From Escherichia coli (GTDB lineage: Bacteria; Pseudomonadota; Gammaproteobacteria; Enterobacterales; Enterobacteriaceae), in NCBI RefSeq assembly GCF_003334785.1, contig NZ_QOWV01000062.1: a DNA stretch of 1,333 nucleotides. One strand, 5' to 3'. The position numbers were made by a program, and so were the translations under genes. The stretch's first letter is position 1. Each line of letters starts with the position of its first letter. The notes below the pieces were generated by a model. It was not told the DNA's origin. It made no database searches and saw nothing but the letters and a program-made list of their open reading frames with translations. Shown in pieces: positions 1 through 1,333 of the stretch.

Positions 1-138
1 AGGTGTTTGCTGTTGTTCAATGTATTGGCGGATGACGGATATTGGCGCACCTCCGCAGCTACTGGCAAAATAGCCAGGACTCCACAAAACGCCTTTGTAG
101 TAATACCTGACTGCAATATCTGGTCGATCTCGTCGCAG
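1..138 (-). pseudogene. tnpA: C-terminal remainder of tnpA, in the same frame directly downstream of the TGA at 139-141; open to the window edge
   Basis: Minus-strand codons immediately after the TGA, in the same frame, read LRRDRPDIAVRYYYKGVLWSPGYFASSCGGAPISVIRQYIEQQQTP. This resembles the conserved TnpA C-terminus (LWS.SYF...GG...RQYIEQQ), including the helix carrying the catalytic tyrosine (Tyr codon at 22-24, minus strand). There is no stop before position 1. Confidence 0.75.
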
Positions 139-426
139 TCACCTACCCGATACGCCTTTGAGGCTGTTTACCAGACTGGATATCGCCAGTTTGGGAGGAT
201 AGTTAATTAACAAATGGACGTGATCTGGTTCGCCATCCATTTCAACCAGTTCAGCTTCAAAATAAGCACATACATTTGAAAAGTAAGTGCGTAGTTTTTC
301 TGTCGCGTCATGGTCAAAAATCTGACGTCGGTATCTGGTGACAAAGACCAGGTGAACATGCATCAGGAAAACACAATGCCTTCCACGCCGGATATCGGTT
401 TCTTTTTTCACAGACCAAAGTATCAT
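139..426 (-). CDS. tnpA: IS200/IS605-family Y1 (HuH) transposase TnpA, 95-aa N-terminal segment ending at a premature in-frame TGA (139-141)
   Basis: ATG is the reverse complement of 424-426. The translation MILWSVKKETDIRRGRHCVFLMHVHLVFVTRYRRQIFDHD...PDHVHLLINYPPKLAISSLVNSLKGVSGR contains the His-hydrophobic-His motif (H-V-H, minus-strand codons at 214-222) and an upstream HVHLVFVTRYRR strand, both typical of IS200-type TnpA. At 95 aa the ORF is too short for an intact TnpA (about 130-155 aa). Confidence 0.85.
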   Translation of the reverse strand: MILWSVKKETDIRRGRHCVFLMHVHLVFVTRYRRQIFDHDATEKLRTYFSNVCAYFEAELVEMDGEPDHVHLLINYPPKLAISSLVNSLKGVSGR

Positions 427-433
427 TTGGCCT

Positions 434-1189
434 GTGAAACGACTACAAGCATTTAAATTCCAGTTAAGACCCGGTGGTCAACAGGAGCGTGAAATGAGGC
501 GCTTCGCAGGCGCATGTCGTTTCGTTTTCAATCGTGCTCTGGCACGTCAGAATGAGAATCATGAGGTCGGTAATAAATACATCCCTTACGGGAAAATGGC
601 TTCCTGGCTGGTTGAGTGGAAAAATGCCACTGAAACGCAATGGCTTAAAGATGCCCCGTCACAGCCATTGCAACAGTCACTGAAAGACCTTGAGCGGGCT
701 TACAAAAACTTCTTCCGGAAGCGGGCTGCTTTTCCCCGATTCAAAAAGCGGGGACAGAATGATGTATTCCGCTACCCGCAGGGCGTTAAGCTCGATCAGG
801 AAAACAGCCGTATTTTTCTGCCGAAACTGGGCTGGATGCGCTACCGGAACAGCCCTCAGGTCACGGGTGTTGTGAAAAATGTCACTGTCAGCCAGTCCTG
901 CGGTAAGTGGTACATCAGTATTCAGACAGAAAGTGAAGTATCAACTCCGGTTCACCCTTCAGCATCAATGGTCGGGCTGGATGCTGGCGTGGCTAAACTC
1001 GCCACGCTGTCAGATGGCACAGTCTTTGAGCCTGTAAACAGTTTTCAGAAAAACCAGAAGAAGCTGGCGAGACTTCAGCGACAGTTAAGCCGCAAGGTCA
1101 AATTCAGCGACTGCATTCCTGTATCGCAAATATCCGCAGGGACTACCTTCACAAAGTCACAACGACCGTCAGCAAAAACCACGCAATGA
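434..1189 (+). CDS. tnpB: TnpB (IS605 OrfB-type RNA-guided RuvC-like nuclease), N-terminal 251-aa segment in frame 2; the last ~25 residues are out-of-frame read-through ending at TGA 1187-1189
   Basis: GTG start at 434-436 with no ATG or other start upstream in frame. The N-terminus MKRLQAFKFQLRPGGQQEREMRRFAGACRFVFNRALA matches the conserved TnpB N-terminal pattern. Further conserved blocks follow: WLKDAPSQPLQQSLKDLERAYKNFF, FPRFKKRG, FRYPQG, VTVSQSCGKWYISI, the RuvC-I block VGLDAGVAKLATLSDG (Asp codon 980-982) and KLARLQRQLSRKVK. After about codon 1106-1108 the frame-2 translation (DCIPVSQISAGTTFTKSQRPSAKTTQ) loses all resemblance to TnpB. Confidence 0.88.
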   Translation: MKRLQAFKFQLRPGGQQEREMRRFAGACRFVFNRALARQNENHEVGNKYIPYGKMASWLVEWKNATETQWLKDAPSQPLQQSLKDLERAYKNFFRKRAAFPRFKKRGQNDVFRYPQGVKLDQENSRIFLPKLGWMRYRNSPQVTGVVKNVTVSQSCGKWYISIQTESEVSTPVHPSASMVGLDAGVAKLATLSDGTVFEPVNSFQKNQKKLARLQRQLSRKVKFSDCIPVSQISAGTTFTKSQRPSAKTTQ

Positions 1190-1333
1190 TAGTCATTGAG
1201 GATTTGAAGGTCAGCAACATGTCAAAGTCAGCAGCGGGTACGGTCAGCCAGCCGGGGCGCAATGTCCGGGCAAAATCAGGTTTAAACCGTTCGATACTGG
1301 ATCAGGGCTGGTATGAAATGCGCCGCCAGCTTG
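1102..1333 (+). pseudogene. tnpB: TnpB C-terminal continuation in frame 1, carrying the RuvC-II motif; runs off the window end
   Basis: Frame 1 is open from 1030 to the window end. From about 1102 it reads IQRLHSCIANIRRDYLHKVTTTVSKNHAMIVIEDLKVSNMSKSAAGTVSQPGRNVRAKSGLNRSILDQGWYEMRRQL. This matches the conserved TnpB segment (ARLH..IAN.R.DFLHK......N..IVIEDLNV.GM...........GW.EF.RQL as I recall it from ISDra2-type TnpB), with the RuvC-II Glu codon at 1198-1200. The start coordinate is approximate because the frame junction cannot be placed to the base. Confidence 0.78.

Follow-up and report, generated by a model that had tools for sequence, protein, structure and literature searches.

An IS609 copy in decay in the Escherichia coli chromosome, with a widely shared TGA codon in its transposase gene

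The stretch of Escherichia coli DNA analysed here (the window, 1,333 bp in full) is a copy of the insertion sequence IS609 in decay, with ybcM and yedK as its chromosomal neighbours. An in-frame TGA interrupts its transposase gene tnpA at codon 96, downstream of the HuH metal-binding motif and upstream of the codon for the catalytic tyrosine. We put the probability of the account as a whole, namely a decaying IS609 copy whose tnpA was knocked out by an old TGA allele that has spread among paralogous copies, at about 0.9. The TGA knockout as such is already known, being annotated by the NCBI pipeline PGAP and published for the copy carried by K-12. The features of the window are as follows.

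1..426, minus strand: tnpA pseudogene of an IS609 copy (IS200/IS605 family Y1 HuH transposase), codons 1-142; from translation, Pfam, NCBIfam and PGAP
139..141, minus strand: premature stop TGA at codon 96, derived from TTA (Leu); from the sequence and aligned homologues
214..222, minus strand: HuH metal-binding motif H69-V70-H71, kept in the truncated product; from the translation and homologue alignment
22..24, minus strand: codon of the catalytic Tyr135 (IRQYIEQQ), downstream of the stop and absent from the 95-residue product; from the translation and alignment
262..264, minus strand: codon 55, TAT (Tyr), which is GAT (Asp) in homologues; from the alignment
434..1333, plus strand: tnpB (InsQ/TnpB RNA-guided endonuclease gene), a pseudogene here; from the open reading frame list, the PGAP label 'frameshifted' and an alignment gap

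The tnpA reading frame starts with ATG at 426-424 on the minus strand and gives a 95-residue product that ends in LKGVSGR. Codon 6 (GTG) aligns with the start of shorter homologues and may be the true start of the gene. Bases 139-141 of the plus strand read 'tca', which is TGA on the minus strand, and the next base is C (UGA-C). A preliminary description of this DNA had placed an in-frame TGA directly after LKGVSGR, and both the sequence and its translation confirm it as codon 96. The same description held that a conserved TnpA C-terminus continues in this frame to the edge of the window. This is indeed the case, as the TGA is followed by 46 more codons with no further stop, LRRDRPDIAVRYYYKGVLWSPGYFASSCGGAPISVIRQYIEQQQTP, which complete the Y1_Tnp domain. 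Codon 143 and the natural stop TAG occupy the 6 nt beyond the start of the window.

When the stop is masked, the 142 codons match the Pfam model Y1_Tnp (PF01797), with which the preliminary description had proposed to compare them, over its entire length (model positions 1-121 of 121, E = 6.6e-41). The NCBIfam model NF033573, 'IS200/IS605 family transposase', is likewise matched over its full length with 144.6 bits against a cut-off of 55, whether the stop is masked or restored to Leu, whereas the 95-residue product alone reaches only profile positions 2-84 of 126. Conservation of this degree on both sides of the stop far exceeds what chance would give. Both elements of the active site can be recognised in the alignments. 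The window HuH aligns with the PDHIHLF segment of solved TnpA-like transposases, and in the aligned homologues H71 is invariant and H69 nearly so. Y135 is also invariant, and the region around it aligns with KKYIEEQ of PDB entries 2f4f and 2ec2. H69 and H71 are upstream of the stop and the Tyr135 codon is 39 codons past it, in agreement with the earlier statement that the product keeps the HuH motif and is devoid of the tyrosine helix. The window tnpA is a member of the family by descent, but its product is no functional member. PGAP arrives at the same label, calling the gene an 'IS200/IS605 family transposase', a pseudogene with an 'internal stop'. The parts removed by the truncation were judged from profile coverage, from the sequence alignments with PDB entries and from a published description of IS608 TnpA (PMC3597680). 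An AlphaFold2 model of the restored 143-residue TnpA, calculated from a 21-sequence alignment, had a mean pLDDT of 46.7 and was too poor to use.

IS608 TnpA is a dimer, in which the HuH motif of one monomer and the tyrosine borne by helix alpha-D of its partner together make up each active site (PMC3597680). Since the active site is shared in trans, a product devoid of the tyrosine helix should be unable to cleave or join DNA strands. The single change of TTA (Leu96) to TGA would thus inactivate the tnpA gene of a vertically inherited IS609 copy. The 95-residue product keeps the HuH motif, but the C-terminal third of the conserved domain, with the helix carrying the nucleophilic Tyr135, is gone. 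Without this helix the covalent 5'-phosphotyrosine intermediate is not expected to form, strand cleavage and joining would not occur, and the window copy would be unable to move itself. We infer the loss of activity from the mechanism of the family together with published observations on K-12, which agree with a loss caused by the missing helix.

The element can be assigned to IS609 on two grounds, its high nucleotide identity and the divergent arrangement of tnpA and tnpB. The window tnpA is 98.6% identical at the nucleotide level to the O157:H7 copies labelled IS609 by PGAP, and the MG1655 feature 'insertion sequence:IS609' (1503161-1504908) spans the region homologous to the window. The ATG of tnpA and the GTG of tnpB, the latter at 434 on the plus strand, point away from each other and are 7 bp apart, so that the promoter of each gene has to be located within the other one. 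The ends of the element are outside the window itself, but both are present in L001, a genomic copy identical to the window. The left end of L001 starts ~66 nt before window position 1 with TATC directly 5' of it, and the right end finishes with TCAA, which places the junctions of the element at about -66 and +1653 relative to the window. TATC is found immediately 5' of the left end at all insertion sites, and the right end is TCAA where it is present (L001-L005 and L127-L131). With both signatures in every full copy, these are therefore genuine insertions of the type usual for the family. At least ~10 distinct left flanks were found among the genomes and metagenome contigs.

In strain UMNK88, where ybcM and yedK flank the window copy, the site belongs to the fliE-amyA region. 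Of 5,426 complete E. coli genomes, 4,860 have a place that covers 80% or more of the window. The element in the window is about 1 kb from yedF and yedE (8426-9861 of L001), two genes with a selenium-metabolism annotation. Their nearness to an in-frame UGA looks like a coincidence, and no SECIS-like structure was found.

The stop codon arose from a leucine codon. Leu occupies position 96 in proteins that are 95-99% identical over the whole query and in 78-86% identical relatives from Salmonella, Photorhabdus, Morganella, Proteus, Klebsiella, Yersinia, Xenorhabdus and others; it is invariant in the 21-sequence alignment. The codon is TTA in an O157:H7 copy whose PGAP annotation is that of an intact 'IS609 family transposase'. 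Base 140 of the plus strand is A in the copies with a sense codon (L003 and L005) and C in L001, L002, L004 and the window. The same two bases divide 120 metagenome contigs, chosen by exact match to the surrounding 30 bases, into 62 with A and 58 with C, and none has G or T. The protein alignments settle the ancestral state. The leucine in all aligned homologues and the A at 140 in intact copies identify TTA as the origin, and not CGA or TGG, which had been suggested earlier. The lesion is TTA (Leu96) to TGA, which is T to G on the coding strand and A to C at plus-strand position 140. The more general part of that suggestion, that one nonsense substitution struck a gene which had been intact until then, is upheld by the existence of intact copies that are ~98.6% identical (IS609 of O157:H7) and by the internal stop recorded by PGAP.

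About half of the complete E. coli genomes carry the TGA96 allele. An exact 57-mer with TGA was found in 2598 records and its TTA counterpart in 2331, out of ~4995 records with a match. In complete genomes the allele is found at four chromosomal sites: ybcM-yedK (L001 and L002), ydcL-ydcO (L004 and L131), yjfZ-ytfB (L130) and yajI. The last site is represented by L129 (NZ_CP158426.1), the single IS609 copy of its genome, which interrupts a DUF3251 gene between tsx and nrdR that we take to be yajI. TTA is carried by copies at yjfZ-ytfB, beside gltX and at yeaR-yeaQ, and also by a remnant with two deletions at the yedK locus. The more divergent remnant L006 (NZ_CP124341.1, ybcM-yedK; 96%) has Leu96 and two deletions. 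One of them has removed the left end together with the last 18 tnpA codons, and the other most of tnpB, the right end and a part of yedK.

The TGA is older than the other lesions of the window copy. The copy at the same locus in CFSAN061772 has TGA96 and an intact tnpB. Since L002, at ybcM-yedK, combines the TGA with an intact tnpB and with Asp at codon 55, the nonsense mutation must precede both the tnpB deletion and the D55Y substitution. The distribution of the TGA elements over several sites counts against their being simply frozen where the mutation arose. In addition, the SNPs among copies form a mosaic and not a tree; the yjfZ copy of SCU-172, for instance, is typical of its locus at -21, 28 and 35 and then has TGA. 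The simplest account is that gene conversion between paralogous IS609 copies, mobilisation in trans with intact TnpA, or the two together have distributed the TGA, and neither process is unusual for this IS family. The metagenome contigs were rejected as a source for a phylogeny of the copies. Nearly every contig is a unique mosaic haplotype and some have flanks from two loci, and assembly mixing of paralogous copies is likely to be part of the reason. These contigs were used for allele and lesion counts only, and the locus assignments were taken from complete genomes.

The nonsense codon is part of a more general decay of tnpA. A tally of 102 full-length tnpA copies, taken from complete-genome loci and metagenome contigs, showed TGA96 to be the commonest of several independent lesions. 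It is present in 51 copies, whereas indels are found in 13 and an early stop at codon 62 or 76 in 7. The natural stop is lost by a change of TAG to CAG in 84 copies, and only 10 copies are canonical and intact. The independent lesions, comprising the stops at codons 62 and 76 and indels of 1 bp and 5 bp, occur in the metagenome loci L014, L019, L033, L102, L109, L122 and L125, among others. The TAG to CAG change is at position -3, just left of the window, and lets the reading frame run through the left-end hairpin into the flanking DNA. The resulting C-terminal tails are locus-specific (database proteins of 160-224 residues) and are seen in L004 and L131 (ydcL), L005 and L127-L129. The natural TAG is kept at the locus of the window. 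Downstream of the stop, TGA copies contain 7 non-synonymous and 2 synonymous variants. With a site ratio of 3.2 to 1 this gives a pN/pS of ~1.1, a value that is consistent with neutrality, although the counts are too small for significance.

Two further changes belong to the lineage of the window. Codon 55 is TAT only here, against GAT (Asp) in all aligned homologues that include the segment; an A at position 264 is confined to L001 and the window, and L002 at the same locus has C. The tnpB gene has suffered a 34-bp deletion after position 1104 (1104/1105), between two CAGC repeats, as seen by comparison with positions 7108-7141 of L002. The deletion shifts the reading frame, which ends at 1189, and PGAP calls tnpB 'frameshifted' in L001 and intact (WP_000826464.1) in L002. 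The 57-mer of the deletion junction was found in at most 691 records, an upper bound because the band of at least 99% identity includes partial alignments.

Several other explanations of the TGA codon can be considered. The preliminary description had allowed for a sequencing error, in which case the gene would really be intact. The probability of an error in sequencing or assembly is negligible, because 24 or more complete E. coli genomes (chromosomes), obtained independently from various hosts by various laboratories, reproduce the entire window with 100% identity, the 57-mer with TGA is present without mismatch in the 2598 records mentioned above and the TGA in 58 of the 120 metagenome contigs, and the yncK gene of the MG1655 reference has the same TGA. 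The idea that the 95-residue form is a normal short variant, with functional homologues that naturally end at this position, has practically no chance of being correct either. The best 120 relatives listed are all 136-224 residues long, none of them is an intact homologue ending at the stop site, and every one examined includes the C-terminal tyrosine segment. The family models PF01797 and NF033573 also need the full length. A functional HuH-only fragment is a different matter, because TnpA dimers share their active sites in trans (PMC3597680) and a partner without tyrosine could in principle inactivate heterodimers. Such a fragment could have been retained as a dominant-negative restraint on IS609, and the presence of the allele in about half of complete genomes would fit with this. 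However, the truncation removes about one third of the conserved domain (NF033573 positions 85-126) and not only the tyrosine helix, which makes stable folding doubtful. Moreover, the codons upstream of the stop have accumulated 15 non-synonymous and 10 synonymous changes and one extra stop in TGA copies, and the window copy has its private D55Y substitution at a conserved Asp. An inhibitor of this kind is conceivable but unsupported, and we regard it as a remote prospect.

Leaky or programmed readthrough of the UGA, by tRNA-Trp or with selenocysteine, deserves a closer look. A low level of full-length TnpA would keep transposition low but above zero and would explain the presence of the allele at several loci. 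The UGA is followed by C, which is a weak context for termination, reportedly the weakest in E. coli. The junctions typical of the family, TATC and TCAA, accompany the allele at each of its four or more loci, and the 46 codons downstream are free of stops in most TGA copies. On the other hand, the hairpin after the UGA is not significant (81 nt around and after the codon; z = -1.57, with 17 of 200 shuffled sequences folding equally well), and neither the window nor L002, the locus with an intact tnpB, had any Rfam match at the gathering threshold. Codon 96 corresponds to the invariant Leu, never to Cys, Sec or Trp, in 21 aligned relatives; with neither a SECIS hairpin nor a Cys or Sec in these relatives, the position does not qualify as a selenocysteine site. 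Gene conversion, suggested by the mosaic SNPs, would explain the spread over several loci, and mobilisation by TnpA from intact copies elsewhere in the cell would do so just as simply. The K-12 literature reports no movement of IS609 (PMC2891674, PMC5009759). The many independent knockouts of tnpA indicate relaxed selection and not a tuned device, and the pN/pS downstream of the stop is ~1.1. Readthrough as the explanation of the allele is therefore highly improbable. Unprogrammed trace readthrough to a full-length L96W protein is possible, but nothing suggests selection for it. A broader version, in which TGA96 is a natural attenuator and either rare L96W readthrough or trans-complementation keeps TGA elements mobile at a very low rate, can be put forward because of the leaky UGA-C context, the occurrence in about half of the genomes and at four or more sites, and the TGA in the sole copy of the yajI genome. 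We consider it very unlikely, and prefer the account of an element that has lost its transposase and is in decay.

With a nonsense codon in tnpA and a frameshift in tnpB, the IS609 copy in the window is non-autonomous and is better regarded as a relic fixed in the chromosome than as an active mutagen. The significance beyond correct annotation is small. Nevertheless, one nonsense allele at several paralogous sites, set among mosaic SNPs, illustrates concerted evolution by gene conversion, or trans-mobilisation, of IS copies, and the shared allele may be useful for studies of the decay of IS200/IS605 elements and TnpB.

The closest known counterpart of the window tnpA is yncK (b4578) of MG1655, a pseudogene inside the annotated IS609 at the ydcL-ydcO locus. 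When translated, yncK has TGA at codon 96 as well, and its protein differs from that of the window only at V27L, Y55D and V106F. It is the same element with the same stop, but at a different site in the chromosome. The K-12 copy has lost its natural stop (TAG to CAG) and has an intact tnpB (insQ). In contrast, the window copy has kept the natural stop, as seen in L001, but its tnpB is frameshifted and it carries D55Y. Transposition of IS609 was reported to be abolished by the stop codon in yncK in the K-12 derivative MDS42 (Umenhoffer et al., PMC2891674; data not shown), and none of 758 new IS insertions in K-12 mutation-accumulation lines was an IS609 event (Lee et al. 2016, PMC5009759).

The IS609 of O157:H7 at yjfZ-ytfB (tnpA product WP_000604943.1) represents the intact state of the element. 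It has the same divergent layout and the same ends as the window copy, in addition to the 98.6% identity of tnpA. Unlike the window copy, it has TTA (Leu) at codon 96, an uninterrupted TnpA of 143 residues and an intact tnpB.

A more distant comparison is provided by IS608 (ISHp608) of Helicobacter pylori, in which tnpA and tnpB are co-directional and not divergent. Its TnpA (PDB 2a6m and 2vhg) belongs to the same fold family by sequence (E = 1.1e-18, residues 15-141). It shares with the window tnpA the HuH motif and the C-terminal catalytic tyrosine, the latter being encoded past the stop in the window, and the right end of IS609 is TCAA as well. IS608 TnpA is an active enzyme, whereas its distant relative in the window is truncated before the tyrosine helix.
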